This document shows, in pieces, positions 31,891 through 56,410 of a stretch of DNA of 64,000 nucleotides (within the stretch, counting starts at the first letter, position 1; each line of letters begins with the position of its first letter). The notes beneath the pieces are model-generated. The model saw only the letters and a list, made by a program, of their open reading frames with translations. It did not search any database and had not been told where the DNA came from. Source of the stretch: Candidatus Omnitrophota bacterium (GTDB taxonomy: Bacteria; Omnitrophota; Gorgyraeia; Duberdicusellales; 4484-171). Where the stretch lies: NCBI GenBank assembly GCA_003154195.1, contig PMCS01000008.1:143366-207365 (forward strand), read 5' to 3'. Made by a program: the position numbers and the translations under genes.

Positions 31891-31904
31891 GCCGCAAGAA
31901 TACC

Positions 31905-31998
31905 GTGTCCACAGATTGCTCAGATTTTACAGATTAACTTTTAATTCTATACTGCCTAATCCATATTTTCTGATAAATCAGCGAAATCTGTGGACAAG
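31905..31998. repeat. family C intergenic element (CAGATT arrays with TGTCCACAGATT / AATCTGTGGACA termini), copy 1
   Basis: gtgtccacagattgctcagattttacagatt ... tcagcgaaatctgtggacaagac followed by tttttgtttttaa. Lies between the convergent lpxB and giant-gene 3' ends. Confidence 0.65.
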
Positions 31999-32018
31999 AC
32001 TTTTTGTTTTTAAATATT

Positions 32019-35000
32019 TTACTTCCACGCTTTTGCCGCCAATTCATCTATAGTTTCTTTCGCCGAGACATCTTTCATAAACGTAATCACAAATTGCAAG
32101 CGGTTAAAATGCGGGTTGAGACGGCTATCGGCCAGAGCTGCGTCCATGCCGGGGCCGCTGGTTTGAAGATTAAAGCTCTTGCCGGTGACGTCGATACCGC
32201 CCAAGGGCGTTGAGCCGGTCCCCTCCGGGGAGGCTCCGCTTCGCTCCGCGCTTGAGCCCGTTGAAGAAAGCGGCGAGGCGGCGGATTGTCTTTCTGCTTT
32301 TCCCCCCAGAGGTGAAGCGGCGGCTCTTCTTTCTTCTTCCCTCACCCCCTCTCCTTTGACATCTAACAGGACAAACTTATCCGACATATCCATACTGTTA
32401 TATTTATCTGGACCGAACCCAATATCGGTAAATGTCTGCCAGCTATCCCTGTGCAACGGTACAACGCTGATAGTCTTACCTTGCTGGTAAACTGTCATTT
32501 TAGGAATAGTTATTTCATTAGAGAAATTAAACGACCCTCCAATTTCCGCCGGCAAAGCGATACCGATACAATCGAGTTTTCGCGCGGTAACAGATAGTCC
32601 CCTGAATACATTCATTAATAATTTTCCGCCGTCAAGAGAAGGAGAATTAAGCGTATCTATGGTCAGGACTCTTTCGCCTTTATCGGTCACGCCAACCATC
32701 AACCCGATATATCCTTTAAGTTCTTTTCCTTTATAAACAAAATAGTATTGCGTATCTTCATGCATTGTCCGGGTAAACGGAAATCCCTTATCCGTATCCA
32801 TAAAGAAAGAACAATCGATCATCCCGGCCCGGCCGCGGAAGGCCGCCAAAAATCCCTGGCCGACAAAACGATAGTTGGTATTTCCCGCACGCTGGACGGA
32901 TACTAACGCCGGCCGGGATAAATCTTCCAGCAACTTGCTCACCGCCTTAATCTTCTCCGCCTTTATCCCCAAAGAATCAGGTAAGTGCTTTTTGTAACCT
33001 TCGAAGTTTATAAGTGCGGCGGTGAGCCGCTCAATATCGGTTGAATCAAGATCACTGGCCAATGCTTCATCGGATAAAACATCGGCGACGATTAAATCTC
33101 GCATCAACCCAAAGCAGGCTGCTTCGATTACATTATCCCCGCGGTTGCCTCTGGCCAATTTTTCAGCCAAAAGAAATACAGTCTTATAAAATTCCTTCCG
33201 GTTATCCCTGAAATACTGTTCCATATCGTCTGTGGAAGGATATTCAATATGGAAGCGTCCACCGCCTAGCAGCCTTCCTTCGGTAACAGCTTTACGACGC
33301 TGCATCTCATAATAGATCCCTTTAACACTGGAAAATTTATGCCCCGGGCCGAATACTTTTGCGATCAGGCTCAAATCGTCTATGCCTTTTTTTATCTCCC
33401 TTAACTGCCGGGCATGTTCATCGATCACCACGGAATTGACGGAAGTGGCGTCAAGCACAGTAACCCCTTCTTCGCTTACCTCAAAACCAGGCAGCGCCCG
33501 TTTCTTAGCAAACATCTTCTGCCAACTGCCGGGATACTTGGCGTCGTATTCCTTAAATTTAGCCAAGCGCTCTTTTAATTCGTCAAGGGTCATATTGATG
33601 CCCGCGACTCTTATCCCGGCATAAGCATACCAAACCGACGCCTCGTCGTCGTAGTTGAAACCGGCGTCATCGTCAACCGCCGCCGCGGCATCACGCATAA
33701 TTTCCTCTAAGGCAGCGCGGGAATCTTCTTCGGTTAAATACCACTCCACGACTTTTGGCTCATATGGTAAATTGCTCTTGCTCCACAATTTATATTTTTT
33801 ATAATCCTCACCAGCGTTCATCCCTTGTCGGGCCAGCTCATCGCTATAGACTAAGACTAAAGCTTGGGCTGCAGCCTGGACTACATCATGATTTCCATTA
33901 ACAACGCTCCTTAAGGCATCACGGGTGGCTTCTTTTTCCTGCTGGTCCATCCCGGCGTAAGCCAAACCCAAGGCTTTGGCCGCGGCCAGGCATACCGCCC
34001 AATCTTCGGCGGCGGCGGTAAGTCGGCTTCTTAATTCATCCAGCGACATATTATTCTGCCGAAACATCGCGGCATAAATCAAGCCTAACGCGTTGGCTCC
34101 AACTCGACACAAATCAAGCTCCGCATAGGTAAGCGTGCTTTTTAAAGCCTCGGCTATCCCCTTTGCTATACCCGGTTGTCGGACCAGTTCGCTGCCGACC
34201 AGGCCTAAAGCCTGGGCCGCGGCCTTGATTACGTCCCAATTCGGGTCATTAAGTTTGCTTTTAAAAATTTCTACTATCTCCGGAGAGACTTCTTCTCCCT
34301 GTCGGGCTAATACGGTATAGATCAAGCCTAAAGCTTCGACTACGGCCAAGCGCACCCACCCATCTTCGTCGCTGAGCTTACTTTTAAAAGCCTCTACTAT
34401 CTCCGGGGGGACTTTTTTTGCATGCCGCGCCAATTCACTGCAGACGGTGCCTAATATTTGGGCCGCGACACGCGACATACCAGAATCCTGATCGGTGAGT
34501 TTCTCCCTAAAGTAACCTATTTCCCGGAGCAGAAAAGCTTCTTCTTCCGGTTGTCCAGCCATTTCAGTATAGAATATACCTAAAGCTTTGACCGCGGCCT
34601 GGCTTACGGGATCAAACCTGTCAGTAAGCTGAATTTTTAAAGCCTCTACTATCTCCGGGGGAACTTTTTCTGCCCTTCGTGCCAGCGCGGCACAGGCCAT
34701 GCCTAAAGCTCCAACCATAGCCTGGCGTACAACCCAATTTCTTTCGACATCAAGTGCGTCTTTTAATTCAGTTAAGTCTGCTCTTTTTCCATTTCGGGCT
34801 AACGCGGTGTAGATTGCGCCTAAAACTTGGGCTGCGTCTCGGCGTATGCTATAATTCGAATCGCTCAAATCGCTAAGCTTGCTTTTTATCTCTGAGGCCA
34901 GGAAGGCTTCTCTCCCCGGTTGTCCAGCCAGTTCGGTGTAGACCAAGCATAAAGCATCAATCAAAGCCAGGCGCATGTCCGCATTCATTTCACCAACAAG

Positions 35001-38000
35001 CAGGCCTTTAAAAGCCTCTATCTCTCGGAAGATTTCTTTTCCCTTTCGCGCCATCTCAGTATAGACCAAACCTAAAGCTTTAATCGCATTTTGGCGTGTT
35101 TTAGGAGACTCAACGGAGCTGTAAACGGAGGTGTATTTACGTTGTAAATCAGTTAAGTCGACTTCTTTTCCCTGTCGGACCATCTCACTGTAAATCAGCC
35201 CCAAAGATTCAATCGCGGCCTGGCGTACGTTATCATCCCAATCGTTAAGTCTGTTTTTTAAAAGAGTTAAGTTGACTTCTTCTCCCCTACGAATCAGTTC
35301 GCTGTAGAATAAACCTAAAGCTTGAGCCGCGGCCTTGCGTATATACCAATTCTTGTCGTGAAGATCGCCTTCTATGGACAGCATGGATCGAACCGCTCGC
35401 TGGGAAAGAGTCAGGGGTTTATCGCTCTTAGGCAGAGTAAAAGTCCGGACCGGCGAAGCGGCGGATGAACTCTCTGCTTTTTTTCCGAGGGGCGCGACAT
35501 CCCTGGCGACCGCACATCTACCATGTGTTATATCATGGCCGTTGAACCGGTTAACATCTCTTAAATCGACACGGGGTTGGTTGGAGAACATCCTTTTATA
35601 AAAATCGAGAATATCGGGATTGTTGCTTCCCAATCCCGGATCTGACTCATCTCTCATGGGAACGAGTACTTTTGTCGCGCCGAGGGAACGGGCGATTTTC
35701 TCTTCGTAATCCAAAACCTGCCTCATCAAATCTTCGGTGACAATGCTTTCCGTAACTTCCTTGCGCGGGCTGAAGCCACGGTCGATAAGGACAGGCTCGT
35801 TGGTCCCGGCAATGGCATTACCAATAATAAGAAGAGTACCGCCTAAAAGGTCGTTAGTATCGGCATCGACAAGCACCAAGGCCACCATGTTATCGTTGTC
35901 TTCCATGGTATGATTTGTGCGCGTCCAACATTCGTCACTAAAATAGCCGATAAATTCGGCAAGCCAGCCCCTGGTGGGAACGATTTTTATCCTCCGGGTA
36001 AAACCGCCTGCCTTTATGCGTTCGCTCTCGTCTCTTAAGGCCTTGGCATCGATCGGCTTAAACAGGGCCCGGGCTCTTTGTTGATCATTGGAAATACCTT
36101 CCGAAGGAAAACCATCGACGAGTTCAATTAATTTAGAGATAGTCTCATGGGTCAACTCCTTGCCGCGACGGCCTCTAAAATATTCCAACAACTTTGACAA
36201 GCCGGTGTTATGATAAAAAGCGTAGGTAAGTAGTAACCTCCTGACCACCGGCCTAGTCGTTTTAACAGAGTTTATCGTTGTTATTGTCTCGATGGTTAAA
36301 TTCAATAAAGGAAATTGCCCCTTGGGCGCGGCTTCAAGCTCTGACCTGGCTGATCTTAACAATCTCAGTTTTCTTTCTACATCCGCTATCTTTCTCGCCT
36401 CCGTAGCTTCACTAGGCGTATGCGATAACTTCTCGACTTCCTTATCAATCAGAGAGAATAAATCCAGAATCGTAGCGTCATAGGGCGATTTATCTTCTCC
36501 CGCCACGGCGATAGCATCAATCGCGCCTTCAACCGCCTCAACCATTCCTTTACCATAGCTTGCCGCGTCAGCCCCAAGGCCCTGTTGTTTACCGGTAGAG
36601 ACTACGATTGATTCTTCCAACAAGGGGAAACCTTTTGGTAAAGCGGCCATATCTTTATCTTCTTCCTTCTTTTTTTTCTCGTAAGCCTTTTTATAATAAC
36701 CATAAATCGCGTCAAACGGTTCAACCCCATCCTCTCCCCTATGCAGGCTGGTATCGTAATGGACGATATGACGCAATAAAGCATTGACTTCGGGGTCGGA
36801 AATATTTAAATCACCCGGCAAGACAGCGTCAAAGAGATGGCCGAAAATTTTACGGTGTAGCTCACCTTTAATGAATACGCTGTTTTGTCCGCTCGGCTCT
36901 GTCCTTGGCTCTACTGCCGGCGAGGCGACAACTCTTTCTTTTCGTCCCGCGTCCGAGTGACCGGAGGGAACGGACGTCCTACGTCCTACGGATAGCTTTG
37001 CGTTTTGCCCTGTTGCCGGCGACCCGGCTCGCCCCGAAACAATAACCTCACTGCTGATTACTTTTACACCATGGCCTTCACAGATATCGGCTATCGTAAA
37101 CCTGGGAGGAAGGTTTGGCCTAACTTCCAGATTAAAAGCCTTTGGGGTAAAAATTGTTCCGCCCGAAGTATACCGACGCCGCACCGGATGCTTGGTAGCG
37201 CTATCCTGCTCCCGCTTGATACAGTTATAGACACCTCCCTTGTAAGCCTGGACATAAAGGTTAAAGATTTTATCTTTTACGTTCTTGTCGTTTAAATCAA
37301 TCCCGGCGATCTTACTCTGGTCGATGTAGTATTTATAGAAGGTATTTTGGAATTTCTTGCGGAACCAGACGGCTAAGATAAGGGAGTGGTAGATTTGGCG
37401 AAGGGTCGCAAAGCTCTTTCCCTGGTTGACTTCTTGGTTGACTTGAGGCAGAATTACTTCTTTGAATACATTTGAAGCGATCTCATCAGCTTTTTCTTTT
37501 TCATCCTTCATCCTTCGTCCTTCATCCTTCGATTGACCGCGCTGCGCCGCAGTGTAATCGCGCTCATGCATCGTCTTCAGGCTGGCTTCCAGGACAAACG
37601 CCGTATCCCCTTTCTCATAAACCACGCTCTTCTGGGGCATGACCCAGACTTTGTTGTAGGTGTTGATAGAACCGTTGATCCCGTTGAGCCGGTTTTGCCG
37701 GTTGAGCCCGTTAGAATTGGTTTTTGCGATAACCTCATTCCAATACCTTTTTCCCAATTCTGTTTCCGGATAAGTCAAAGAAGAAACGAGTTGCTTCAGG
37801 CAATAATCCTGCCCTAACAGGTCTTTACCGAGATCGGTCAGGGCTAAATTGTCTGAAGCGACTCGTTCCCCTTCATAAGGTGACAGGTTGACCCATAACT
37901 CTTCCTGGGGAAGAGTTAACCCTGCCAGAAAATACTTGATAAGACGATTAGCTTCTTCTTTGGTGACATCTTCTTTATTGGCGGTATCGACTAAGAATTC

Positions 38001-38306
38001 TATGTTGAGAGGGTTTTTAGGATTAAAACGTAAACCTTTAAGCACGGGATAAGAGAACTTTTCCGAAAGGTTGAGGAGTTTGGTCGGGGCTGGAAGGTTG
38101 TAGATCGCACCGGTAGGCTGGGGAGCCGGGGATACGGAAACGGCTTCCGCCATGATTTCCGGCGCGAATGAAGAAAAAAATATCGCGCCGGAAAGAAATA
38201 CAGCGGTGCACCTGAACAGAATAGTACTTCTGCGTATTGGGATTAGCTGGGTCATAACTAATCCAGAAAATACGTCCGGTAAAACGTATTTTCTGCTCCT
38301 TAGCAA
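32019..38306 (-). CDS. giant (2095 aa) exported or membrane-anchored protein with central HEAT/PBS-lyase-like repeat array and Ser/Ala-rich linkers
   Basis: Single uninterrupted ORF in the track. Hydrophobic N-terminal segment AVFLSGAIFFSSFAPEIMA. About 12 or more tandem repeats of the form D..VR.AA..ALG.(I/V)Y(S/T)E(L/M)AR.G..(V)...L. Low-complexity linkers GKKAESSSAASPV and GGKAERQSAASPLSSTGSSAERSGASPEGTGS. No recognisable catalytic motif. Confidence 0.7.
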   Translation of the reverse strand: MLRSRKYVLPDVFSGLVMTQLIPIRRSTILFRCTAVFLSGAIFFSSFAPEIMAEAVSVSPAPQPTGAIYNLPAPTKLLNLSEKFSYPVLKGLRFNPKNPLNIEFLVDTANKEDVTKEEANRLIKYFLAGLTLPQEELWVNLSPYEGERVASDNLALTDLGKDLLGQDYCLKQLVSSLTYPETELGKRYWNEVIAKTNSNGLNRQNRLNGINGSINTYNKVWVMPQKSVVYEKGDTAFVLEASLKTMHERDYTAAQRGQSKDEGRRMKDEKEKADEIASNVFKEVILPQVNQEVNQGKSFATLRQIYHSLILAVWFRKKFQNTFYKYYIDQSKIAGIDLNDKNVKDKIFNLYVQAYKGGVYNCIKREQDSATKHPVRRRYTSGGTIFTPKAFNLEVRPNLPPRFTIADICEGHGVKVISSEVIVSGRAGSPATGQNAKLSVGRRTSVPSGHSDAGRKERVVASPAVEPRTEPSGQNSVFIKGELHRKIFGHLFDAVLPGDLNISDPEVNALLRHIVHYDTSLHRGEDGVEPFDAIYGYYKKAYEKKKKEEDKDMAALPKGFPLLEESIVVSTGKQQGLGADAASYGKGMVEAVEGAIDAIAVAGEDKSPYDATILDLFSLIDKEVEKLSHTPSEATEARKIADVERKLRLLRSARSELEAAPKGQFPLLNLTIETITTINSVKTTRPVVRRLLLTYAFYHNTGLSKLLEYFRGRRGKELTHETISKLIELVDGFPSEGISNDQQRARALFKPIDAKALRDESERIKAGGFTRRIKIVPTRGWLAEFIGYFSDECWTRTNHTMEDNDNMVALVLVDADTNDLLGGTLLIIGNAIAGTNEPVLIDRGFSPRKEVTESIVTEDLMRQVLDYEEKIARSLGATKVLVPMRDESDPGLGSNNPDILDFYKRMFSNQPRVDLRDVNRFNGHDITHGRCAVARDVAPLGKKAESSSAASPVRTFTLPKSDKPLTLSQRAVRSMLSIEGDLHDKNWYIRKAAAQALGLFYSELIRRGEEVNLTLLKNRLNDWDDNVRQAAIESLGLIYSEMVRQGKEVDLTDLQRKYTSVYSSVESPKTRQNAIKALGLVYTEMARKGKEIFREIEAFKGLLVGEMNADMRLALIDALCLVYTELAGQPGREAFLASEIKSKLSDLSDSNYSIRRDAAQVLGAIYTALARNGKRADLTELKDALDVERNWVVRQAMVGALGMACAALARRAEKVPPEIVEALKIQLTDRFDPVSQAAVKALGIFYTEMAGQPEEEAFLLREIGYFREKLTDQDSGMSRVAAQILGTVCSELARHAKKVPPEIVEAFKSKLSDEDGWVRLAVVEALGLIYTVLARQGEEVSPEIVEIFKSKLNDPNWDVIKAAAQALGLVGSELVRQPGIAKGIAEALKSTLTYAELDLCRVGANALGLIYAAMFRQNNMSLDELRSRLTAAAEDWAVCLAAAKALGLAYAGMDQQEKEATRDALRSVVNGNHDVVQAAAQALVLVYSDELARQGMNAGEDYKKYKLWSKSNLPYEPKVVEWYLTEEDSRAALEEIMRDAAAAVDDDAGFNYDDEASVWYAYAGIRVAGINMTLDELKERLAKFKEYDAKYPGSWQKMFAKKRALPGFEVSEEGVTVLDATSVNSVVIDEHARQLREIKKGIDDLSLIAKVFGPGHKFSSVKGIYYEMQRRKAVTEGRLLGGGRFHIEYPSTDDMEQYFRDNRKEFYKTVFLLAEKLARGNRGDNVIEAACFGLMRDLIVADVLSDEALASDLDSTDIERLTAALINFEGYKKHLPDSLGIKAEKIKAVSKLLEDLSRPALVSVQRAGNTNYRFVGQGFLAAFRGRAGMIDCSFFMDTDKGFPFTRTMHEDTQYYFVYKGKELKGYIGLMVGVTDKGERVLTIDTLNSPSLDGGKLLMNVFRGLSVTARKLDCIGIALPAEIGGSFNFSNEITIPKMTVYQQGKTISVVPLHRDSWQTFTDIGFGPDKYNSMDMSDKFVLLDVKGEGVREEERRAAASPLGGKAERQSAASPLSSTGSSAERSGASPEGTGSTPLGGIDVTGKSFNLQTSGPGMDAALADSRLNPHFNRLQFVITFMKDVSAKETIDELAAKAWK

Positions 38307-38405
38307 CAGACAGGCATCGCCTGTCTCTACGCATTATATTTAACATATTTAATCGGGGAAAACCGGAAAAAGGGAGGGTTTTTGAGGGATTTTTGAAAAC
38401 GCTTT

Positions 38406-38456
38406 CTAATCCGGACGAGCCGGAAACAAAAAAAGAAAAAAGCTCGTCCGGATTAG
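38406..38456. other. perfect 15-bp-stem hairpin between the yhcH-like gene and the giant gene
   Basis: ctaatccggacgagc-cggaaacaaaaaaagaaaaaa-gctcgtccggattag. Confidence 0.55.
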
Positions 38457-38487
38457 CTATATCTTGCTCGCGGAAAAAAACTATAAA

Positions 38488-38643: not shown

Positions 38644-38668
38644 AATTATCTTGTTATCTACATATATT

Positions 38669-39115: not shown

Positions 39116-39129
39116 AGCCTATCCTTCAC

Positions 39130-39327
39130 TCATTGCGTTAACTCTCTTATTTTCTCCTCAATCATCTTAACATGTTTTTCCTCTTCGTTGATTAAGGAAC
39201 CTAACAAATCGCCAATGGAAGAATGTTCGAGCGCCAATCTTCGATATAATTTAACCGACGCTTTTTCCTTACTTAAAGCCAATTCCAATGCTTCCAGGGG
39301 TATCATAACGCCTCCTTTTAGAAACAA
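39130..39327 (-). CDS. small (65 aa) ferritin/rubrerythrin-like helical protein
   Basis: ALELALSKEKASVKLYRRLALEH...EEEKHVKMIEEKI: E...H / E..H spacing reminiscent of half a diiron four-helix bundle. Weak call. Confidence 0.3.
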   Translation of the reverse strand: MFLKGGVMIPLEALELALSKEKASVKLYRRLALEHSSIGDLLGSLINEEEKHVKMIEEKIRELTQ

Positions 39328-39362
39328 AAACTTTGGTCCACAGATATTTTTTTATTTATGGC

Positions 39363-40376
39363 TTATCCCTGAATGCTTGCCATATGTTCACACCCGGACG
39401 AACGAAACTCGCCGATAAAACCGTCCATTTCTTGTTTAGTCTTGGCCAGAAACGCCCGCATCCGCAACGGCCTTACCCGGGAAAACCCCTTGGTATACCA
39501 GCCGAAGAATTTGCGAAAATGCAAAACCCCCCGCGCTTCGCCGTAAAGTTCGACATTCATTCCCAAATGCCGTTCCATAATCCCGGCGACAACTTCCAGC
39601 GCCGGCCGTTCTGGTAGAATCCCGGTTCGGCAAAATTCTTCGATTTCCTTAAAAATCCAGGGATTACCCGTGGCGCCGCGCGCCACCATCACCACGTCAC
39701 AGCCGGTCTCATCGAACATCCTTTTGGTTAACCGGCCGCTTAGTATATCCCCGCTGGCGATCACCGGGATTGTTAAAGATTTTTTAACTTTCGCGATAAT
39801 ATCATAATCGACCGCGCCGCTATATCCCTGTTTTCGCGTCCGGCCATGGACCGAAACCGCAGCCACGCCGCAATCCTGGGCCAGCTTGGCTATCTCTACC
39901 GCGTTTATCGAGGAACTATCCCAGCCGGCGCGAATCTTAACGGTTACCGGAACGGTTGAACGGGCAACCATAGAAGTAAGCAATTCCTTTAATTTATCAG
40001 GTTGGCGCATCAACCCTGAACCCGCACCGGATCGGATAACTTTCTTTACCGGGCAAGCAGCGTTTAAATCAAGAATATCAAATTTATAACCGGCCAGACA
40101 GTCAATCGCGCGCGCGATAATATCCGGCTCGTGGGTAAGCAGTTGTATCCCTAACGGCTGGTCAGCCGCGCAAGACTTAAGGATTATCTGCGCTTCGTTA
40201 CTCTTATAGCAAAGCGACCGGCCGCTGATCATCTCAGTAAACGCGAATGCGCATCCGGCCTCCCGGCTGACCAGCCGGAACGGCAGGTCGCTCACTCCCG
40301 ATAAAGGAGCAAGGATGTAAGGTTTTTCTAAGGTGAATTTTCCTATTTTAACCATATAAAAACTTTTTTTGTCCAC
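39363..40376 (-). CDS. dusB: tRNA-dihydrouridine synthase
   Basis: 337 aa; LAPLSGVSDLPFRLVSREAGCAFAFTEMISG, NAACP, HGRTRKQ, GNPWIF, the canonical Dus motifs. Confidence 0.85.
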   Translation of the reverse strand: MDKKSFYMVKIGKFTLEKPYILAPLSGVSDLPFRLVSREAGCAFAFTEMISGRSLCYKSNEAQIILKSCAADQPLGIQLLTHEPDIIARAIDCLAGYKFDILDLNAACPVKKVIRSGAGSGLMRQPDKLKELLTSMVARSTVPVTVKIRAGWDSSSINAVEIAKLAQDCGVAAVSVHGRTRKQGYSGAVDYDIIAKVKKSLTIPVIASGDILSGRLTKRMFDETGCDVVMVARGATGNPWIFKEIEEFCRTGILPERPALEVVAGIMERHLGMNVELYGEARGVLHFRKFFGWYTKGFSRVRPLRMRAFLAKTKQEMDGFIGEFRSSGCEHMASIQG

Positions 40377-40499
40377 AGATTGCTCAGATTAGAAAATATG
40401 GAATCAAGCTCGAAACAAAATAGAATATCGGTATTTTCGCAATCTATTAGTTTATATTTTTCCCACAAAATCTGTGAAAATCTGCGTAATCTGTGGACC
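40361..40499. repeat. family C intergenic element, copy 2
   Basis: ataaaaactttttttgtccacagattgctcagattag ... atctgtgaaaatctgcgtaatctgtggacc. Confidence 0.65.
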
Positions 40500-40520
40500 G
40501 ATTATTCTTTGGTTAAAATT

Positions 40521-41048
40521 TTATTTCCAAAAAGTATGCCCTTCCAAAAATAAAAAACTCAACGCACAGATTGTCTTAGCATCGATAATTTCCCCGCTTC
40601 GCAACATCTGTGCTATATCTTCGCGGTCGAAAATCTCCTCGCTAATTACTTCGTCGGCCATCGCTTTTTTAGTTACTTTCGCCAGCCGCGTCGCTTTATA
40701 AATGATTATCCGCTCGGTGGAATAACCCGGCACCGGCACAATTTCCTGGATTTTTTCTAACTTCCCCGCCTTATAGCCGGTTTCCTCGATAATCTCCCGT
40801 CTGGCGCAATCAACGGGCTTCTCGCCTTTTTCCAAAGTGCCGGCGGGAAATTCCCAGATATACTTATTAATCGCGGCGCGGAACTGGCGGATCAATAAAA
40901 TCCTGCCATCGTCAAAAATCGGGACAATCAAAACCGCGCCGGGGTGCTTGATGATTTCCACCTTAACGTCAAAACCGTTAGGCAGGGTCATTTCCTTGAC
41001 AAATACCTTAAGTAATTTACCGTTATAGACTTGTTTTTCTTTTTTCAT
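40521..41048 (-). CDS. NUDIX hydrolase (ADP-ribose pyrophosphatase-like)
   Basis: 175 aa; Nudix box GTLEKGEKPVDCARREIIEETG. Confidence 0.8.
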   Translation of the reverse strand: MKKEKQVYNGKLLKVFVKEMTLPNGFDVKVEIIKHPGAVLIVPIFDDGRILLIRQFRAAINKYIWEFPAGTLEKGEKPVDCARREIIEETGYKAGKLEKIQEIVPVPGYSTERIIIYKATRLAKVTKKAMADEVISEEIFDREDIAQMLRSGEIIDAKTICALSFLFLEGHTFWK

Positions 41049-41065
41049 TTGAGCTCCTTACGATA

Positions 41066-41218
41066 CGCAGATGATCGCCGATTGAAAATCAACAGATGAT
41101 CACAGATAAAACTATTGAATGCCAAAATTTTCCATCTTTGACTCAATCGTATATCTCTCTTCGGTATTTTTATCAACGATCATCAGCATCTTCTAATCAG
41201 TGATCATCTGCGTTTAAT
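41066..41218. repeat. family B intergenic element, copy 4
   Basis: cgcagatgatcgccgattgaaaatcaacagatgatcacagataaaa ... caacgatcatcagcatcttctaatcagtgatcatctgcgttt. Overlaps the mnmG stop. Confidence 0.7.
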
Positions 41219-43030: not shown

Positions 43031-43086
43031 AATAAAATTTTAACCGCGAAGATAAGGAGATAAATAAAAGACAAAAACAATTTTTA

Positions 43087-43228
43087 CCACAGAGGACACA
43101 GAGCTCACAGAGGATACAAAAATAATTTCCTTTTCAAATATTTTTAATACTGGCCTAGGCCAATAAAAATCTTTTAAAAATTAGCATTTATCGCTTCTCT
43201 CTGTGTTCTCTGTGCGCTCTGTGGTGAG
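43087..43228. repeat. family D: inverted pair of CACAGAG(N2) nonamer arrays flanking a TGGCCTAGGCCA palindrome, upstream of mnmG and of the plus-strand islet
   Basis: ccacagaggacacagagctcacagagga (43087-43114) and tctctctgtgttctctgtgcgctctgtggtgag (43196-43228). The latter is near-identical to rc of 59692-59735 and homologous to rc of 57659-57696. Confidence 0.65.
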
Positions 43229-49023: not shown

Positions 49024-49051
49024 GACAAACTCCTCTTAATTTTTTCGCAAA

Positions 49052-49084: not shown

Positions 49085-49571
49085 GCGGTAAAAAACAAAT
49101 ATCAATAGTTTATTTTATATCACAGGGCACGGCGGGTGTCAAGAAAAATACTACATATTGTATCCACAGCTTATCCACTCACAATATATTGATAATTAAA
49201 GGATTATGCTCCCCTTTAAATTTAAGTAAGTTTTTTGCTGAAAATATTTTTGATTAATGAGACTTCGCCGTAATGAAACTTGCCCGGTATGCCGGGCTTA
49301 GTTGAATTATCAAGTCCGAAGTCCGTCAATTCGTTTAACGAATTGACGAGACCTCGCCATCTATGGGATGGCGGGGGCGCAGGATGAGGCGGTAGTCGAA
49401 CAATAAAACTTGCCCCGTACTCGGGGCTTAGTTTTATTGCCCAGCACTAATTTTGCTGTGGCAAAATTAGTGCTGGGCAGCGTAAACCACGACATCGGTT
49501 GATGGTACTTCATGGAGTAGGATTTTAAAAAAATCGTCAAACGTACCTGAGGTTTACGCGGCCGGGCTTGG

Positions 49572-50570
49572 TCAATGGAAACTCACTGTATCTCTCATCA
49601 CCAATTCCGTATCCAGAACAATTTTCTTAACTACAGCGTTTTTATTCTTTACTGCTTCGTCTAAAATATCGACGGCGGCCGCGCACATCGCCGACAAAGG
49701 CTGCCTTACTGTGGTAAGCGCGAGGCTGCCCCAATGATAATTGGGATTATCGTCAAAACCGATTACGCTTAAATCTTTGGGGATAGTTATTTTATTTTCT
49801 TCGGCAAAGGTTATCACCTCGCCCGCTACTTCGTCGCTGCAACATAAAATAGCCGTAGGCGGTTCAGACCCGGAAAATAACTCACCCAGCCTTTCCCGCG
49901 CTTCTTTGCGCGAAAAATTTGTTACCTTAATATAAGTGTCTTTTACCGGTATCCCGTTTTTCTGTAAAGCATTCTTGTACCCATCAAGACGTTCCGCGGC
50001 GCATTGCACGTGAAGATTTCCCGCTAAATGAGCAATTTTTTTATGGCCGTGGTTCAACAAAAACTCCGTTGCGTCATAGCTTCCCTTAAAGTTATTTATC
50101 GCTACATAATTAACATTTTCGGCGTCAAGTTTTTTATTCATCACTACGAACGGCAATCCTTCTTTGGCTATTCTCTCCATCTGGCTTTCGTTACCTAAAA
50201 CATCGGAAAAAATAATCCCGTCGACCAGAGAAGTCTTTAAACTATCTTTATTCCAGAAAACATGCAGCTGTAAATCTACCCCCTTGGCCGCCATCGAAAC
50301 AGCAACACTTCTTATTATTTCCATCGCATAATAAGAATAAAAAAGACCTTCGTAGCCGGGAATAACCAGGCTAAAAACGCCCAGCTTCCCCCCAGCCAAC
50401 CGTCGGGCATAAATAAAAGGCTGGTAATTAACTTCTTTAATAATTCGTTCGATTTTTCTGCGGCTGGATTCTTTCAAAAGGGAAGGATTATTGAAAAAGC
50501 GGGATACGCTGGCGATGGAAACGCCCGCTTTCTGCGCGACATCTTTAATGGTAATTTTGGGAGTGCCCAC
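49572..50570 (-). CDS. LacI-family transcriptional regulator
   Basis: 332 aa; N-terminal HTH ITIKDVAQKAGVSIASVSRFFN and a periplasmic-binding-protein-like sugar-binding domain. Confidence 0.85.
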   Translation of the reverse strand: MGTPKITIKDVAQKAGVSIASVSRFFNNPSLLKESSRRKIERIIKEVNYQPFIYARRLAGGKLGVFSLVIPGYEGLFYSYYAMEIIRSVAVSMAAKGVDLQLHVFWNKDSLKTSLVDGIIFSDVLGNESQMERIAKEGLPFVVMNKKLDAENVNYVAINNFKGSYDATEFLLNHGHKKIAHLAGNLHVQCAAERLDGYKNALQKNGIPVKDTYIKVTNFSRKEARERLGELFSGSEPPTAILCCSDEVAGEVITFAEENKITIPKDLSVIGFDDNPNYHWGSLALTTVRQPLSAMCAAAVDILDEAVKNKNAVVKKIVLDTELVMRDTVSFH

Positions 50571-50674
50571 TTTCCTGCCTTAATTTAATATAGCTTGTAG
50601 ATTATAGATAGTAGCTGTACCGGTTATCTGTACTATCTATCATCTATGAAAGGCAATTCTTAAATTACTCCAAG

Positions 50675-51913
50675 TTATTTACTGACTACCGTATCGCCTT
50701 CCTGGACGGTTGAGCCGCTTATTACATTCCTTACATCGGCCGCGGAGATTTCTTTCCTTGTTTCGATTATCTCGACATCAGCGATAGCTTTATCGCCGCG
50801 CATAACTTTCATGCTCATGCCCGGCTTCAGGCCGGCAGACTCTCCTATATCCATAACAATGAATTTTTCTTCCTGGTTTACCGCGATAATCGAACCCTTT
50901 GCCCCCTTGACCCCTGAAATTTCCGGTTTTACCACAATCGGAGGCAATTCCACGGAAGCAGACCCGCTGCCGACGCCGGAATCTTTTGTCCTGATCGCGC
51001 TTTTTAAATCTTCCTGCAATTCTCCCAAAGCAAGCGTTTTTTGTTTAAAAACATTTTCTACTTCCGTAATCCTCTTATCTAAATTATCCTTCTTATCCTG
51101 GATATCTTTAATGGCATTCTGAAGCTGGGTTCTTTCTTTGTTGGCCATAATCAACTCTCTTTTAAGATTAAGATTGTCTTCGCGCATTTTAGTCAGCTCA
51201 TCGCTGGCTACCTTGCGAGTTTCTCTTTCATTGACCAGATCCCTGCTCATAATATCCATGCTGCGCTCTTTGTATTGGAGATCCTGCTCAAGGCGGGTTT
51301 TTTCTTTATTGAGGTCGTCAATCTTCAAGGTTAATTCCTGGTTGGTCCGTTCTAATCCTACTATCTGGTTCTTGGTATCCAAAAGTTCCCTGGTTATTGA
51401 ATCAAACTTTGCTTCCAACTCGGCTTTCGTCCTAACCACGTCAGCCCAGTAATCTTCTCCGGAAATCTTGCTTTCCTCGGATTTTTTTTCTGGTTCTCCC
51501 TGGCCTCCCTCCGGCGCGGCCCCTGCGCCGGACGCAGCAGGCGGCTCTTTGACCGCCATCGACATGCCTGCTTTAGATTTCTTAATCTCTTCGACTAAAG
51601 CTTCTTTATCCTTGGAAATAGTTTCGTATCTATTTTTATAGGAATCTCTTTCTTTCTTAAGGGCATCAAGCTGGCCCATGGCCTGCCTGGTTTTGGCAAG
51701 CTCATTTTCTATGCCTTTTACCTTATCGTTGGCTTCGGCATACTTAGCCTGCCAATCATCTTTTTCTTTAATCAGCCGCGCCTTTTCGGATGTAAGTTCG
51801 TCATTTTGCGTTTTTAAAACCTGGTTATCGCCCGCAAATTTAAAAACAGCCGCGCCGCCGACTAAAAGCACCAGAACAAATAAGACAAGAAAAATTATTC
51901 TTGTTTTATCCAT
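50675..51913 (-). CDS. membrane-anchored coiled-coil protein with C-terminal beta-rich domain
   Basis: 412 aa; N-terminal TM IIFLVLFVLVLLVGGAAVF, about 280 aa of heptad-rich coiled coil (many E/K/L), a Gly/Ala/Pro linker, then a C-terminal about 80-aa SAF/SH3-like segment. Function unknown. Confidence 0.6.
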   Translation of the reverse strand: MDKTRIIFLVLFVLVLLVGGAAVFKFAGDNQVLKTQNDELTSEKARLIKEKDDWQAKYAEANDKVKGIENELAKTRQAMGQLDALKKERDSYKNRYETISKDKEALVEEIKKSKAGMSMAVKEPPAASGAGAAPEGGQGEPEKKSEESKISGEDYWADVVRTKAELEAKFDSITRELLDTKNQIVGLERTNQELTLKIDDLNKEKTRLEQDLQYKERSMDIMSRDLVNERETRKVASDELTKMREDNLNLKRELIMANKERTQLQNAIKDIQDKKDNLDKRITEVENVFKQKTLALGELQEDLKSAIRTKDSGVGSGSASVELPPIVVKPEISGVKGAKGSIIAVNQEEKFIVMDIGESAGLKPGMSMKVMRGDKAIADVEIIETRKEISAADVRNVISGSTVQEGDTVVSK

Positions 51914-52029
51914 TAATCCTCCCTTTCACGAATAGTTGACTCAAGAAAATGCAATAAAAAATTGCATTTTTCCCATTAATTTCGATTATAACATATAAAT
52001 AATTCGTGTAAAGAGCTTTATAATATATT

Positions 52030-52992
52030 TCACAGATCATCCAGGGCAAGCATTGCCGCGCCAAGAACGGTCGCGTTTCTCCCTAAAGCGGAATAAGTAA
52101 GCTTTAAATTTTTTCTCATCTCGCTGAAAGTAAAATCTTTCACGCAGGCAATACAATCATCTAAAAAGAAATCAGGCGCTTCTTCCAACCCCCCCCCGAT
52201 AACGACTACTTCGGGATTAAGCATGTTGACCAGAAAGGAAATCTTGGCGGCCAAAGCCGTTGCCGCCTCTTTAAGAATTCCCCGGCTTAATTTATCTTTT
52301 TTTGCCTCTTCGAAAATATCGGCCAGCGAAAGCTCGCCGGTCGAAGTTATCCTTTTAATAAGGGAAGTCCCTTCGCCGCGGGCGATGAGTTCTTTTGCCT
52401 TCTTAACCATGTCCAAGTCAGCGTGCCATTTCTTAAGAAAAGAAAGGTCTCCCAGACAAGAAGCATGCGCCTCTCTTAAATTTATAAACAGCTCGCCGGC
52501 GGCGCCATCTTTACCTCTATATAATTTACCGTTAATGACAATCCCCATCCCCACGCCGGAAAACATATAGAGCATATCTTCATGCCTGGAAAAATTAAGC
52601 TGGTGCTCGGCAAAAGCGCAGGCATTGGCGTCGTTTTCTAAAATCACCGGAAATCCGAATTTTTTTTCCAGATATTCCTGAAGCGGCAAAGCGATATAAA
52701 CATAAGTAGATTTTTGTTTTTGCGGCCAGTAGACTATTCCTTTATCGTGGACAATTCCCCCTAAGGCAACCCCGACTCGTGCGATATTTTTTTTGTCTTT
52801 ACGCGCTTCGGCAATAACTTCCTCAAATAGCTCTATCAGCACCTCAATCGTTTCATTGGCATCTACTTTATTTCTTTTTTTCTGGATTTGCGCTATAACC
52901 TTACGGTCATCGCGCAAAACCACCGCCCTGGCATCAAAAAGATTAAGGCCGATACCGATCGAACATTTAGATTCCATATCGTTCTCCTTCAA
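52030..52992 (-). CDS. ROK-family sugar kinase or regulator
   Basis: 320 aa; N-terminal GIGLNLFDARAVV, ILENDANACAFAE and GMGIVING motifs typical of ROK glucokinase/NagC family members. Confidence 0.6.
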   Translation of the reverse strand: MKENDMESKCSIGIGLNLFDARAVVLRDDRKVIAQIQKKRNKVDANETIEVLIELFEEVIAEARKDKKNIARVGVALGGIVHDKGIVYWPQKQKSTYVYIALPLQEYLEKKFGFPVILENDANACAFAEHQLNFSRHEDMLYMFSGVGMGIVINGKLYRGKDGAAGELFINLREAHASCLGDLSFLKKWHADLDMVKKAKELIARGEGTSLIKRITSTGELSLADIFEEAKKDKLSRGILKEAATALAAKISFLVNMLNPEVVVIGGGLEEAPDFFLDDCIACVKDFTFSEMRKNLKLTYSALGRNATVLGAAMLALDDL

Positions 52993-53144
52993 GAAAAATC
53001 TGCCTCTCCCAAAAAGCTAAGCAGATACAACGCCGAGAAAACCGATGATTTAGACAAGCAGTCAACAATAGAATACCAGATTTATAGTTTTTATCAATAA
53101 AGAAACCGGGTATGGCGCCGGATAGACGATTCCTGCAAATAAAC

Positions 53145-54071
53145 TTATTTCTCCACCCTGAACTTAGCGTTCATCATTGCATCGTTCGGCCGGGATTTCC
53201 ACCGGCGGTGAATCCAGCTCCATTGCGAAGGAACATCGCGAATCCACCCCTCGATTATGCGCGTAAACTTTATCGCGTTTAAAAGTATCGTTTCATTATT
53301 ATCTTCCTTTAAAATAAGATTTTCGGCGGGAAATATCTTTAAACAATGCTGCCCCGGCTTTTGTGAAGATATATACGCGGGAACAACGGCAGCCTGTGTG
53401 CGCAAAGCAAAAACAATAGGGCCGATGGGAGTAGCGGCGAGTTCGCCAAAAAACTTGACCCATACTCCGCCGGTGCCAAAGTTCTGATCCATCAGCATCA
53501 CGACAATTTCATTGTCACGCAACGCCTTTATGGTATTCTTAACGCACTCTTGCCGCGGAAAGGAAAGAATGGTTTTTATACCCGCCCGGTCGCGCAAACT
53601 TTGGATATAGTCGCCGGTTTTTTCATCGCGCATCGGCCGTGCCATGACATTCACGGTATAACCTTCCTTTACCAGCTTAAGCAGGAGTAAAGGAAAATTA
53701 CCCAGATGGGCGGTAAGGATAAGCACACCTTTATTCCGGCACAGCGCCGCGTCGAGATATTCCTTGCCTTCAATCGTAATACGCGCGATTTCGTCAGGAT
53801 GCTGCAGGAAATATACCGATTCAAAAGACCATTGCGCCATATACCGGAATACATCCCCGGCTATCTTTTCTTTTTCTTTCTGCGCCATCCCGGGAAAAGC
53901 AATCGTCAGACCTTCCCTGGCGAATTTTCGGTGGGGGGTAAGCCAATAGGCGATACGCGCGATAAATGCGCCTACGGCATAGGAAACTTTCAAGGAAAAC
54001 AATCCATTCAAAAAAAGAAAAAGATTAAATGCCAGTTCGCTGGATTTACGTCTTAAAAATTTATTATCCAT
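53145..54071 (-). CDS. lipid A biosynthesis late acyltransferase (LpxL/HtrB/MsbB family)
   Basis: 308 aa; N-terminal membrane anchor, catalytic-region motif LILTAHLGNF (HX4D-like acyltransferase box) and PGQHCL. Confidence 0.65.
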   Translation of the reverse strand: MDNKFLRRKSSELAFNLFLFLNGLFSLKVSYAVGAFIARIAYWLTPHRKFAREGLTIAFPGMAQKEKEKIAGDVFRYMAQWSFESVYFLQHPDEIARITIEGKEYLDAALCRNKGVLILTAHLGNFPLLLLKLVKEGYTVNVMARPMRDEKTGDYIQSLRDRAGIKTILSFPRQECVKNTIKALRDNEIVVMLMDQNFGTGGVWVKFFGELAATPIGPIVFALRTQAAVVPAYISSQKPGQHCLKIFPAENLILKEDNNETILLNAIKFTRIIEGWIRDVPSQWSWIHRRWKSRPNDAMMNAKFRVEK

Positions 54072-54583
54072 TATAGTTTATACCCGATCTTCCTTAATAA
54101 ATCTTTCCGCCATTTTATATCTTCGGAGCCTTCAATGCCTTTGGGCGAAGAACCATCGATCACCCCCATAATTCCCCTGCCCGATTGTGTTTGGGCAACA
54201 ATAACTTCCAGAGGATTAGCCGTGGCGCAAAAAATATTGCATACTTCGCTGAGGTTCTTCAACTGGTTTAAAATATTTATGGGGTAGACGTCTTTTAAAA
54301 TAAGGAGAAAAGAGTGGCCACAGCCAATCGCCTGAGCATTACCGACGGCGATTTTTTTCAGCGCCTCGTCATTGCCTTCGGCCCGGATGAGGCATTTGCC
54401 GCTGGCTTCGCAAAACGCCAGGCCGAATTTAGCGTTGGGGACGCTGGAAACAATCAGCTCATAAATATCTTCCACGGTCTTGATGAAATGCGTCTGGCCG
54501 ATGATAACATTCAATTCTTCGGGTTTATCGATTTTGACTGCCTCGAATTTTATTTCCATAACCCCCTCCAATATTTTCGCCAC
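54071..54583 (-). CDS. adenosine-specific-kinase-like (PF04008-like) protein
   Basis: 170 aa; the IGQTHFIKTVEDIYELI...FGLAFCEASGK...ANPLEVIVAQTQSGRGIMGVIDG pattern resembles the adenosine-specific kinase family as I recall it. Weak. Confidence 0.4.
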   Translation of the reverse strand: MAKILEGVMEIKFEAVKIDKPEELNVIIGQTHFIKTVEDIYELIVSSVPNAKFGLAFCEASGKCLIRAEGNDEALKKIAVGNAQAIGCGHSFLLILKDVYPINILNQLKNLSEVCNIFCATANPLEVIVAQTQSGRGIMGVIDGSSPKGIEGSEDIKWRKDLLRKIGYKL

Positions 54584-54636
54584 GAAAACACAAAGATTAT
54601 TAATTAGGCCAATTTAATTTTAAAATAAATTGGCCA

Positions 54637-56121
54637 TTAGTCTATGGTTTTTCTTTGTGGCAAAATCTTCTCTGATTTATATCTTATTTTGATAACAGAA
54701 AAAATCAATAGAAATAATAAGCAGGCTGCGGAAAATAATTCCGGAAAGCGGTTAAAAAAGCTCCTTCCTTTATTCAAGGGCAGTTTAAAACTCCACGCGC
54801 CACGGCAAAATGTCTCCTTGCCGTTGCGGTTAAATTTATTTACGCGCCCATAGAAATCGGCATACCCCGATATGCCGGTGTTGGCGCACCGGGCAATAGA
54901 AATCCGGTTCTCCATCGCCCGTATCGCCATAATCGCCAGATGTTGGCTTGCCTCCGGCTCGCCATGAAACCACTCGTCGTTGGTGATATTGACGAGAAAA
55001 TCGCTTTTGGCCGCAAAGCGCGCGGCAAAAACCGGCGGCGTATCTTCAAAACAAATCAGAACGCCGAAATTTTTTCCTTTCCAGGAAAAAATCTTATCCT
55101 CGCTGCCGCGCTGCATATCGCCCAGCTCGTTAAGCACTTCGATGAAACTGAATACTTTACGCAAAGGGACATATTCGCCAAACGGCACCAGTTTTATCTT
55201 CTGGTACTCGCCCCGGAAACACCCGCATTTAGCAATCAGAAAACTGCTGTTGGTAAATTGATTATTCCGGTAACCGATCGCCCCCATTAAAATATCGCGG
55301 CCGATATTTCTAGAAAAATCTTCGATGAGCCTCAATTCTTCATCGTGGACGAGCGCCGGCCAGGCGGCTTCGGGAAAAATGGCTAAAGAATCTTTATCGG
55401 TTTTAGCGCTTAATTCTTTTAGCCCTGCTAAAATATCGGATTTCTTGACGTCGCTCCGCTTCTCGCTTTCGGCGACATCCGGCTGGACAACCGACAAATC
55501 TATCGTATCGGCTATCTTCAGAGTATTTATTTTAAATAAGGAGTAAGCGACGCATGCCGCCATGATAAAAGAAAAAATAACGGTTTTCCTAGCCAGGTTT
55601 TTTTTCGCGGAGAAAAAATCGCCGATTAAAACATTGGCCGCGACGATTAAAAAAGAAATGAATTTAACACCGAATAAATCTACCGGTTGGACCAAATATA
55701 AATTGGTATATTGCGAATAGCCTAAGTTACCCCAACTGAATCCGCACCAGATACTTTCCTTAAGCAATTCCATGGCAACCCATAAACACGGCAAAGCGAT
55801 AAGCCGGAAAGGCCGGCCGCTGAAAAACCGGCCCAAAAGAAAAAATAGAACCTGGTAAAGCGCCAGATACCCCAGTAAAAAAACAAGCCCCAAAACGGTG
55901 ACGTGGCCGACCCAGAAAATCATCACGCCGAAAAAAACGTACCCGAAAATAAAACTATAGAACAGGCCTTCTTTTAAACGGCTCCGTGATTGTACGACAA
56001 AATACGGGGCGAGAGAAAACCAGATTAAAAAAGAAAAGGAAGGAAAATTAAAACTCAGGGCAGACGCTGCCGCGCTTAGAACAACAATTACTAGATTTTT
56101 AGAGTAAGTATTACTTTGCAT
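54637..56121 (-). CDS. lnt: apolipoprotein N-acyltransferase
   Basis: 494 aa; N-terminal polytopic membrane domain and a C-terminal CN-hydrolase domain with GVLICFEDTPP (catalytic Cys) and NDEWF. Confidence 0.85.
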   Translation of the reverse strand: MQSNTYSKNLVIVVLSAAASALSFNFPSFSFLIWFSLAPYFVVQSRSRLKEGLFYSFIFGYVFFGVMIFWVGHVTVLGLVFLLGYLALYQVLFFLLGRFFSGRPFRLIALPCLWVAMELLKESIWCGFSWGNLGYSQYTNLYLVQPVDLFGVKFISFLIVAANVLIGDFFSAKKNLARKTVIFSFIMAACVAYSLFKINTLKIADTIDLSVVQPDVAESEKRSDVKKSDILAGLKELSAKTDKDSLAIFPEAAWPALVHDEELRLIEDFSRNIGRDILMGAIGYRNNQFTNSSFLIAKCGCFRGEYQKIKLVPFGEYVPLRKVFSFIEVLNELGDMQRGSEDKIFSWKGKNFGVLICFEDTPPVFAARFAAKSDFLVNITNDEWFHGEPEASQHLAIMAIRAMENRISIARCANTGISGYADFYGRVNKFNRNGKETFCRGAWSFKLPLNKGRSFFNRFPELFSAACLLFLLIFSVIKIRYKSEKILPQRKTID

Positions 56122-56166
56122 AATAACGGAACGGAATTAAATCAGAAAAACAATAGAAAAAAATAT

Positions 56167-56410
56167 AGTCCACAGATTTCTCAGATTACTCAGATTGGTT
56201 TCCCCAGATTTTTCTTTTTGTTTCTAAAAACGGCACGCCGAAATTTAATAATAAACCTAAAATTTTATGCACCTCGATGGCGGCGCCGATTATTTTTTCG
56301 GTAATATCTTCATGCGGCCAGATTTTATCGTCATAGTTTCGAATATTTTTCTCCTAATCTTAATCTGTGACAATCTGAAAAATCTGTGGACAAAAATTTT
56401 TTGTTTTTAA
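56167..56410. repeat. family C intergenic element, copy 3 (expanded, ~240 nt)
   Basis: atagtccacagatttctcagattactcagattgg ... taatctgtgacaatctgaaaaatctgtggacaaaaattttttgtttttaa. Track ORF 56116..56304 inside it is probably spurious. Confidence 0.6.

Follow-up and report, generated by a model that had tools for sequence, protein, structure and literature searches.

The 64,000-nucleotide stretch of the Candidatus Omnitrophota contig PMCS01000008.1 analyzed here (the window) carries five copies, C1 to C5, of a dispersed repeat, family C, and we consider it probable that these are MITE-like (miniature inverted-repeat transposable element), non-autonomous and internally deleted relics of a small selfish cassette built around a GxxExxY nuclease gene. 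The core of one copy, C3, is the remnant of such a gene, and the arrays at its ends bracket full-length genes of the same family in other genomes. An earlier note on this DNA had stressed the likeness of the termini to the DnaA box and a possible link to a replication origin; the transposon-like element that it had named as the alternative is near the best explanation, except that the target duplications expected of it were not found.

Family C in the window and the gene remnant in C3

A search of the window for GTCCACAGATT with at most one mismatch retrieved nine sites vs. 0.56 +/- 0.70 in shuffled sequences, none of which reached nine. Seven of these are exact (31907(+), 31985(-), 40371(+), 40488(-), 56168(+), 56381(-) and 61409(+)) and two have one mismatch (39336(+) and 24604(-)), the site at 24604 being inside an element of another repeat family, family B; the hexamer CAGATT itself occurs 47 times vs. 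28.5 expected. The ends of C1, C2 and C3 are inverted pairs made up of six of the exact sites (31907/31995, 40371/40498 and 56168/56391, respectively); 39336 and 61409 are solo ends. The earlier note was thus right that this is a dispersed family with defined termini, and the fragments that it had placed near 39333 and 61411 are real (39317-39361, C4, and 61392-61479, C5). Its description of the interiors as hexamer arrays, however, did not hold, since each arm has only two to four CAGATT units, spaced 9-10 nt apart and confined to the outer ~20-30 nt, and the cores separating the arrays (~40-165 nt) are unique sequence. It had also described the termini as followed by TTTTTGTTTTTAA, which is correct for one side only, the 5' side in the sense orientation (at C1, C3 and C4, and more weakly at C5), whereas the other side carries nnnGTATT(T/C)TT. 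Homology between copies begins at (T)AAAAACAAAAAnnTTT-GTCCAC (the limit can also be read as AAAAACAAAAA..GTCCAC) and ends at GTGGAC-nnnGTATTTTT (end limit GTGGACTATATTTTT); hence, the repeated unit takes in an A-rich leader and a T-rich tail in addition to the arms.

Every copy occupies a short spacer, against the stop or start codons of the adjacent genes; nearly all of the genes on both sides are on the - strand, and only two of the five decayed copies are co-oriented with their neighbors. In the full copies C1-C3, the arms are predicted to pair with each other on both strands and so to form long stems (z = -4.2 to -4.7). Because the family C sequences recur in independent ENA, JGI and NCBI assemblies, an assembly artefact is excluded. 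These copies show several of the features by which MITEs are recognized, i.e., terminal inverted repeats, small size, the lack of a complete gene, presence at unrelated loci, and homology that stops at the element ends (GTGGAC..TATTTTT side).

The connection to a nuclease gene comes from the core of C3. This core matches TIGR04256 with E = 0.0022 in two pieces (profile positions 1-18 and the C-terminal end) and PF13366 with E = 0.04; the scores are below the curated cut-offs (18.4 bits vs. 35 and 14.7 vs. 22, respectively), as expected for a remnant of 55 codons. A hidden Markov model of the subfamily gave E = 7e-6, again in two pieces (positions 13-32 and 114-134). What C3 has lost is the catalytic E...D...ExK region, the residues of which are invariant in full-length relatives. 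Since only the two ends match, C3 is therefore a gene whose middle, with the catalytic core, was deleted.

A protein search with the C3 core returned only two relatives: P0001, with a junction identical to that of C3 and an intact start, and P0002, which carries PF13366 and to which the C3 core is 87% identical. The contigs encoding P0002 (L204/L207) are from the window's own peat-metagenome sample series and have a less-deleted copy in two different settings, and another contig, L229, shows the C3-type deletion junction with other flanks. A mini-element in L204/L207 can be aligned with C1 and C2, and C4 consists of the leader and a single terminal unit joined to the tail. That is, the copies form a graded deletion series from full length to the L204/L207 type, C3/L229, C1/C2 and finally C4, and family C occupies at least eight unrelated loci in the host population (C1-C5, L204, L207 and L229). 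Outside the window, L119 and L223 (see below) have full-length GxxExxY cassettes bounded by such arrays, and their protein may be the mobilizing enzyme.

At C3, the first bases of the leader (TTAAAAAC) provide the stop codon of the neighboring ygjP-like gene, whose open reading frame (ORF) is 24 residues longer than its homologue P0175; the C3 insertion may have reshaped the C-terminus of this host protein.

Array-bracketed GxxExxY genes in other genomes

To describe how far these ends extend, we scanned one genome per species with the pattern GTCCACAGATTNNNCAGATT. At least 119 loci matched, with record titles spanning about a dozen phyla, and among the matches listed at least 83 have independent support, in the form of a third unit or of a partner array in inverted orientation. 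Across 196 termini from these other genomes, the conserved portion is (G/A)TCCACAGATT, with some members terminating in CACCACAGATT or AGCCACAGATT (i.e., in CACCAC or AGCCAC), and the second unit is (A/T)C(A/G)CAGATT, the position left free by the pattern being C in 97% of the cases. The paired elements among the matches listed are mostly 39-320 bp long and have no ORF. E. coli genomes had no match to the hairpin consensus, and a scan of viral contigs with a two-sequence GxxExxY alignment found nothing.

A few of the loci have the gene. In L119, a metagenome-assembled genome (MAG) of the Planctomycetota, an array is followed by AGGAGG, the ATG of a full-length GxxExxY gene, and a stop codon that overlaps the opposite array. 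L223, an unassigned metagenome contig, has a full-length-gene cassette bounded exactly by GTCCGCAGATT and AATCTGCGGAT; its start overlaps the upstream stop codon and the following gene begins 9 nt past the cassette. L117 has a truncated GxxExxY gene (53 bits). Among the 120 homologues closest to the L119 protein, most start with MNPQI(T/S)QIDAD and end with ...NLRKSAKSAD, and these tails ('PQITQI' and 'NLRKSAKSAD') are translated CCACAGATTACACAGATTGACGCAGAT and AATCTGCGTAAATCTGCGAAATCTGCGGAT. In more distant members of the family the arrays are translated in other frames (e.g., STDYTDFTD, SVKSVD) and, therefore, the conservation is at the nucleotide, not the protein, level.

L215 has nested hairpins, with a small upstream ORF cut short by an ORF-less hairpin; spacers of the MAG CAZIEA01 (L044, L066, L098 and L107) consist of serial half arrays (CAGATT, CTTCATG, GGCTGAAG, ACATGTAG, CGGATTA and others); and a Planctomycetaceae chromosome has three tandem CAGATT hairpins of 124-130 bp (L005, 5590-6125). 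Nested hairpins and spacers with several half arrays point to repeated insertion and decay.

The same architecture is found with other units. CACAGAG arrays, the type of family D in the window, bracket GxxExxY genes in L063, Bacteroides finegoldii and Bernardetia, CGCAAAG arrays do so in L009, and there are CGCGAAG arrays around GxxExxY in Sphingomonas and CACGGATT arrays in Treponema. The suggestion of the earlier note that families B, C and D are related is borne out in that the CACAGAG arrays bracket GxxExxY genes elsewhere exactly like the CAGATT arrays do. For an unbiased sample, we took eight GxxExxY genes from PLSDB replicons, selected by protein similarity alone: five have inverted arrays (one partial; four unit types), two have direct-repeat flanks and one has neither. 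All six PLSDB genes with annotated neighbors are co-oriented with the host genes and tightly spaced (radA/X/FAD protein, ade/X/manC and fabD/X/fabG, X being the GxxExxY gene). The fabD-fabG case offers a clean filled/empty pair: the cassette of Sphingomonas parapaucimobilis is ~440 bp long and is missing from a sister species, S. paeninsulae, in which 32 nt separate the two genes; the flanks of the cassette are inverted (ATCTTTTTTCACGCG ... CGCGTGAACCAAAGAAT) with no direct duplication. This pair is direct evidence that cassettes with sister-type arrays are insertions.

Another way in which such paired hairpins could have spread is as repetitive extragenic palindromes and their paired form (REP/REPIN), i.e., short palindromes mobilized in trans by a single-copy Y1 transposase (RAYT/IS200-like), with the GxxExxY gene as an occasional passenger. 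Such a system would account for inverted pairs of hairpins that occur, with nesting, in the intergenic spacers and in many copies per genome, and in L207-L209 and L211 a 233-aa Y1_Tnp gene (L207 2728-3429) follows a composite family-C element at a distance of ~320 bp; further, RAYTs being single-copy, their absence near most copies is expected (PMC3116915). However, in searches confined to the window and the array loci, no Y1_Tnp homologue was found in the window, and only one of the 119 array loci listed has one within 8 kb. The Y1 gene of L207 has no arrays on its far side. REP families are also lineage-specific, whereas the units described here are near-identical across phyla, and the arrays are tied to the ends of the GxxExxY ORF in most of the 120 closest homologues. 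We, therefore, give the REP/REPIN explanation little credence.

The protein itself belongs to a large family (GxxExxY/PDDEXK_3; 19,397 clusters at 50% identity), which a 2012 survey of PD-(D/E)XK proteins listed as of unknown function and transferred multiple times (PF13366; PMC3424549); the later papers that we retrieved gave no functional assignment. Its AlphaFold model has the PD-(D/E)XK fold (predicted local distance difference test score 89.7), with the first 10, array-encoded residues disordered, and E37, D77, E87 and K89 are invariant in full-length relatives. Foldseek returned only general PD-(D/E)XK relatives (TM ~0.45-0.54), with Cas4 SSO0001 and lambda exonuclease best, as well as RecE, tRNA-splicing endonuclease and Hjc; the homing endonuclease I-Bth0305I, also PD-(D/E)XK, is among the weak fold matches. 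A PDB sequence search gave no solved homologue, and there was no match in PADLOC or PHROGs. Some GxxExxY proteins are ~270-295 aa long with two tandem domains (P0254, P0262, P0290, P0316 and others) and look like fused neighboring cassettes.

Under the cassette reading that we favor, the intact unit would be a promoter-less gene for a ~125-aa GxxExxY (PDDEXK_3) nuclease between two inverted arrays, each made of a 9-nt unit repeated in two to four copies (nCRCAGATT by consensus, with (G/A)TCCACAGATT as the terminal one), the unit being extended outward in the host lineage to the A-rich leader and the T-rich tail. The cassette would insert at gene boundaries, in short spacers, and would be expressed by read-through from host operons, as we infer because the intact copies with annotated or called neighbors are all co-oriented. 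The nuclease of the cassette may recognize the repeated units of the arrays, as duplex, cruciform or hairpin DNA, and may promote copying, either by homing or by transposition. At the RNA level, pairing between the arrays could give a long interrupted stem that insulates the insert or leads to its processing, as by RNase III on rRNA intervening sequences, and the stem coupled to the A/T tracts could form a two-way terminator-like hairpin; after decay of the gene, the hairpin alone would remain.

Several observations weigh against this scenario, and it is important to spell them out. In the window, there is no intact GxxExxY gene, and C3 shows no presence/absence variation, being fixed, with the same 285-nt spacer in all six population contigs that reach lnt. 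A DusB-based metagenome scan retrieved relatives just 51-58% identical, with no arrays in 576 kb and no orthologous empty site, and YgjP-like homologues are either 99% or at most 63% identical, which leaves no close host relative for an empty site of family C. The L229 contig is 691 bp long and possibly chimeric. None of the junctions examined, including the Sphingomonas filled/empty pair, has a target-site duplication, and co-inheritance alone would explain the association of gene and arrays. Two different GxxExxY cassettes in L214-L228 (P0107 and P0069, with 70% and 73% identity to the protein of L119) have the same kinds of neighbors, a ResIII helicase gene (~1000 aa) on one side and an N6_N4 methylase gene on the other, a placement that could mean a role in host defence rather than selfish insertion. 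With respect to the RNA steps, the spacer base of the units does not covary and the agreement between arms is modest (61 vs. 51.6 +/- 4.9) and, therefore, selection for an RNA stem is unproven; G.U and A.C mismatches are balanced (78 vs. 92), which does not indicate a transcribed strand, and a simple scan found no canonical terminator at C1 or C3. A promoter scan gave weak outward-facing sites only, with the terminal TGGACA as a -35-like hexamer (9 of 12).

The strongest competing explanation is that the hairpins are kept by the host for RNA structure, that is, as two-way terminators, mRNA-stabilizing 3' stems or RNase III sites between genes, with the nuclease gene being incidental. The long-range stems are indeed strong on both strands (z from -4 to -10), the A-rich leader and T-rich tail are conserved in the host genome and an A-tract/T-tract trend is seen across phyla, and the copies are placed 0-25 nt from stop codons, including C1 between convergent genes; cleavage of rRNA intervening sequences by RNase III provides a precedent (10.1101/2024.02.27.582315). 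Yet loops of ~40-165 nt make poor intrinsic terminators, none being called at C1 or C3, and copies are found inside operons where termination would be harmful (serC in Bacteroides, fabD-fabG), the B. finegoldii copy lacking a U-run. The lack of covariation at the spacer base also argues against this explanation, near-identical units across phyla are unexpected for terminators, and the array-free 576 kb from the hosts' relatives mentioned above indicates that this is not a conserved host feature. Hence, we regard host RNA structure as an unlikely, though not negligible, explanation of the family.

We found no description of array-bracketed GxxExxY genes in the searchable literature, a full-text search for the array sequences gave primer coincidences only, and Rfam 15, with gathering and E-value thresholds, gave no family, just sub-threshold matches to miRNA-like hairpins. 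The parent cassette is a candidate new element class. It is tempting, albeit speculative, to go further and hypothesize that GxxExxY cassettes are an unrecognized cross-phylum class of mobile elements, in which the nuclease would recognize iterons of 7-9 nt at the two ends, most likely when these are extruded as a hairpin or cruciform, and would drive the copying of the cassette into gene-boundary spacers, with host operons expressing it and hairpin relics left behind. If true, this would explain a large share of the unexplained intergenic hairpin and tandem-unit repeats of Bacteroidota, Planctomycetota, Verrucomicrobiota, Acidobacteriota, Cyanobacteriota and others, and would assign a function to a protein family of ~19,000 clusters at 50% identity. 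The bracketing by arrays, together with the probable seeding of hairpin repeats by decayed copies in the housekeeping-operon spacers of many phyla, gives this family a concrete and testable nucleic-acid partner. The arrays also account for the unusual repetitive tails of some predicted proteins ('SAKSAD', 'PQITQI', 'SVSSV'). Cultured hosts exist for such work (Asticcacaulis, Bacteroides finegoldii, Sphingomonas parapaucimobilis and Persicobacter).

The likeness of the termini to DnaA boxes

The earlier note had connected the termini with DnaA, and the corresponding explanation is that DnaA binds to the termini and the CAGATT units, which would serve as an origin, would titrate DnaA in the manner of datA or would belong to a promoter under DnaA control; in that case, a universal box would explain the conservation across phyla. 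The arrangement of oriC, with an outer strong site, inner weaker iterated sites and two inverted halves, is superficially similar. Like DnaA-box clusters (oriC, datA), family C has the terminal 7-mer (A/G)TCCACA, which is the core of the DnaA box, iterated 9-nt sites and two inverted halves. The sequence TTGTCCACA, with a single mismatch to the box, is present at four termini, and it is only at these four that the one-base difference reported previously is found; among the 196 termini from other genomes, 18 are a perfect TTATCCACA and 56 have one mismatch, the remaining 122 having two or three. In addition, mnmG/gidA, often near origins, is present in the window.

The DnaA explanation is, however, not supported. 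The window lacks a perfect TTATCCACA; it has 24 scattered one-mismatch sites, of which only 4 are family C termini, at most one per arm. The GC-skew check proposed for locating the origin gave negative values in all 32 2-kb bins, with no switch of sign, and the spacer upstream of mnmG/gidA has no box cluster. The first two box positions ('TT') are a variable, non-conserved flank across other genomes, termini sometimes read CACCAC or AGCCAC, and the inner units, as read from the sequence, have at least two mismatches to the relaxed box TTWTNCACA; the register is 9 nt in family C vs. 11 nt in oriC. Further, CGCGAAG, CGCAAAG and CACAGAG units have the same architecture and gene association with no likeness to the DnaA box, and the arrays physically enclose a nuclease ORF. 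Family C thus differs from DnaA-box clusters in having no perfect boxes, no skew switch, unconserved box positions 1-2 and counterparts with other unit types, and we consider binding of DnaA as the basis of the family very improbable. The likeness is a by-product of the T-rich flank beside the terminal TCCACA, and repeats containing TCCACA should not be taken for DnaA boxes.

Elsewhere in the window (49149-49190), two adjacent near-DnaA boxes (GTATCCACA and TTATCCACT) are flanked by the two halves of an AT-rich palindrome (ACTACATATTGTAT / CACAATATATTG). A class II ribonucleotide reductase follows downstream, and these may be NrdR-type boxes.

Relation to known elements and other repeats of the window

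The closest known systems are MITEs and REPINs (PMC3116915), with which family C shares a size of 90-260 bp, the lack of a gene or presence of a gene remnant only, terminal inverted repeats, many unrelated intergenic sites, nesting, and derivation, by internal deletion, from a parent that has these ends and a gene. It differs in that its parent is a ~125-aa PD-(D/E)XK protein and no known transposase, in that its ends are arrays of 9-nt units instead of a single terminal inverted repeat, and in its unit being conserved across phyla, with no target-site duplication found. The 23S rRNA intervening sequences (23S_rRNA_IVP / four-helix-bundle ORF) are similar in combining a small ORF of unknown function with inverted ends that pair as a stem and in their sporadic, horizontally spread distribution (10.1101/2024.02.27.582315; PMC3936711). 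IVP is also found wedged inside an operon, cmr3/IVP/cmr2 (PMC3936711), a position resembling that of GxxExxY in ResIII/X/methylase and fabD/X/fabG. In contrast to the intervening sequences, GxxExxY cassettes are in protein-gene spacers, their ORF family is different and cleavage by RNase III is hypothetical; the papers on these sequences report no short-unit arrays (10.1101/2024.02.27.582315; PMC3936711). Consistent with the protein-gene setting, Rfam found three tRNAs only in the window, i.e., no rRNA, and all copies are between protein-coding genes.

Homing-endonuclease genes go through a cycle of invasion, fixation and decay. Family C resembles this cycle as a free-standing nuclease gene that is fixed and decays by internal deletion (C3 to C1/C2 to C4), although homing hits one cognate site and family C copies are at many unrelated sites. 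Correia repeats of Neisseria and the enterobacterial repetitive intergenic consensus (ERIC) and BOX repeats are inverted repeats of spacers that are co-transcribed and may be RNase III substrates or have promoter-like ends, the latter resembling the -35-like terminal TGGACA of family C; to our knowledge, these repeats are genus-specific with no known coding parent, and Correia makes a TA duplication. Cyanobacterial short tandemly repeated repetitive (STRR) heptamer arrays and small dispersed repeats also have short units in tandem that form hairpins between genes, insert into one another and include mobile units of very small size, and differ from family C in sequence; we know of no nuclease ORF linked to either of them. 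The work on small dispersed repeats is cited within PMC3116915. Two other candidates were rejected: integron attC sites (no GTTRRRY core is read at the ends, and the arrays flank the ORF on both sides) and an origin of the arrays as 9-bp target duplications (the two arrays are inverted, not direct).

Table 1. Family C copies and other array elements of the window.
Feature	Coordinates	Strand	Structure and context
C1, whole element	31896..32014	sense -	Leader TTTAAAAACAAAAAGTCTT (31996-32014), arms, ~40-nt core, 3' tail ACGGTATTCTT (31896-31906); flanked by lpxB (30796-31890, +) and a HEAT-repeat ORF of 2095 aa (32019-38306, -), whose stops converge on it
C1, arm	31907..31935	+	Three 9-nt units, GTCCACAGATT GCTCAGATT TTACAGATT
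C1, opposite arm	31976..31995	+	AATCAGCG AAATCTGTGGAC, inverted, one unit degenerate
C2, whole element	40358..40526	sense +, antisense to neighbors	Leader AAAAACTTTTTTT, arms 40371-40390 and 40469-40498, 78-nt core, tail CGATTATTCTTTGGTTAAAATTTTATTT; occupies the spacer from the nudix-gene stop (40521) to the dusB start (~40355)
C3, whole element	56155..56410	sense -	Leader 56392-56410, arms 56362-56391 and 56168-56196 (+56205-56210); between, and co-oriented with, ygjP-like (56407-57066) and lnt (54637-56121)
C3, core	56189..56353	-	GxxExxY (PD-(D/E)XK, PF13366/TIGR04256) pseudogene; first ~20 and last ~20 profile positions joined; no in-frame start
C4, fragment	39317..39361	+	Leader TTTAGAAACAAAAACTTTG and GTCCACAGAT fused straight to T-rich tail ATATTTTTTTATTTATGG, almost the whole element deleted; in the spacer from the dusB stop to the start of the following gene
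C5, fragment	61392..61479	+	Leader TACAAAACAAAGACATT and GTCCACAGATTACAG, interrupting GC-rich palindrome, then GACAGATTTTCACAAAT; opposite arm absent; overlaps the 3' end of a PLD-like ORF (61384-62421, -)
D1	43086..43227	.	CACAGAG units ACCACAGAG GACACAGAG CTCACAGAG ... CTCTCTGTG TTCTCTGTG CGCTCTGTGGTGA; family C architecture
D2, solo half array	59701..59728	+	CACCACAGAG GGCACAGAG AACACAGAG; no partner nearby
Family-B element	41065..41215	.	~44-nt inverted arms of CAGATGATC/CAGAT units
Other family-B copies	17092-17236, 23813-23931, 24500-24624		Element size ~150-165 bp

The coordinates of all copies are given in Table 1, together with those of families B and D. D1 is a complete CACAGAG hairpin just upstream of mnmG/gidA, with z of -7.7 / -9.8, and an array of CTAAG units is located at 59592-59620, in addition to the solo half array D2. 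The frr gene (23924-24484) is bracketed by two family-B copies in opposite orientations, one of which holds the one-mismatch GACCACAGATT at 24604. A 130-nt hairpin of similar layout and different unit (GGGAATTGG / GGATATTGG) follows lepA (11307-13103) at 13120-13250. Further small repeats are found at 30759-30791 and 61354-61386, and at 29457, 45544, 57136 and 49250-49480 (GC-rich palindrome GGGGCGGACC..GTCCGCCC and CGAGACTTCGCCAAAAGTT hairpins); the interruption of C5 is one GC-rich hairpin. Finally, the HEAT-repeat ORF next to C1 contains diverged internal DNA repeats, 111-621 nt apart, with many of the spacings being multiples of ~123 nt.

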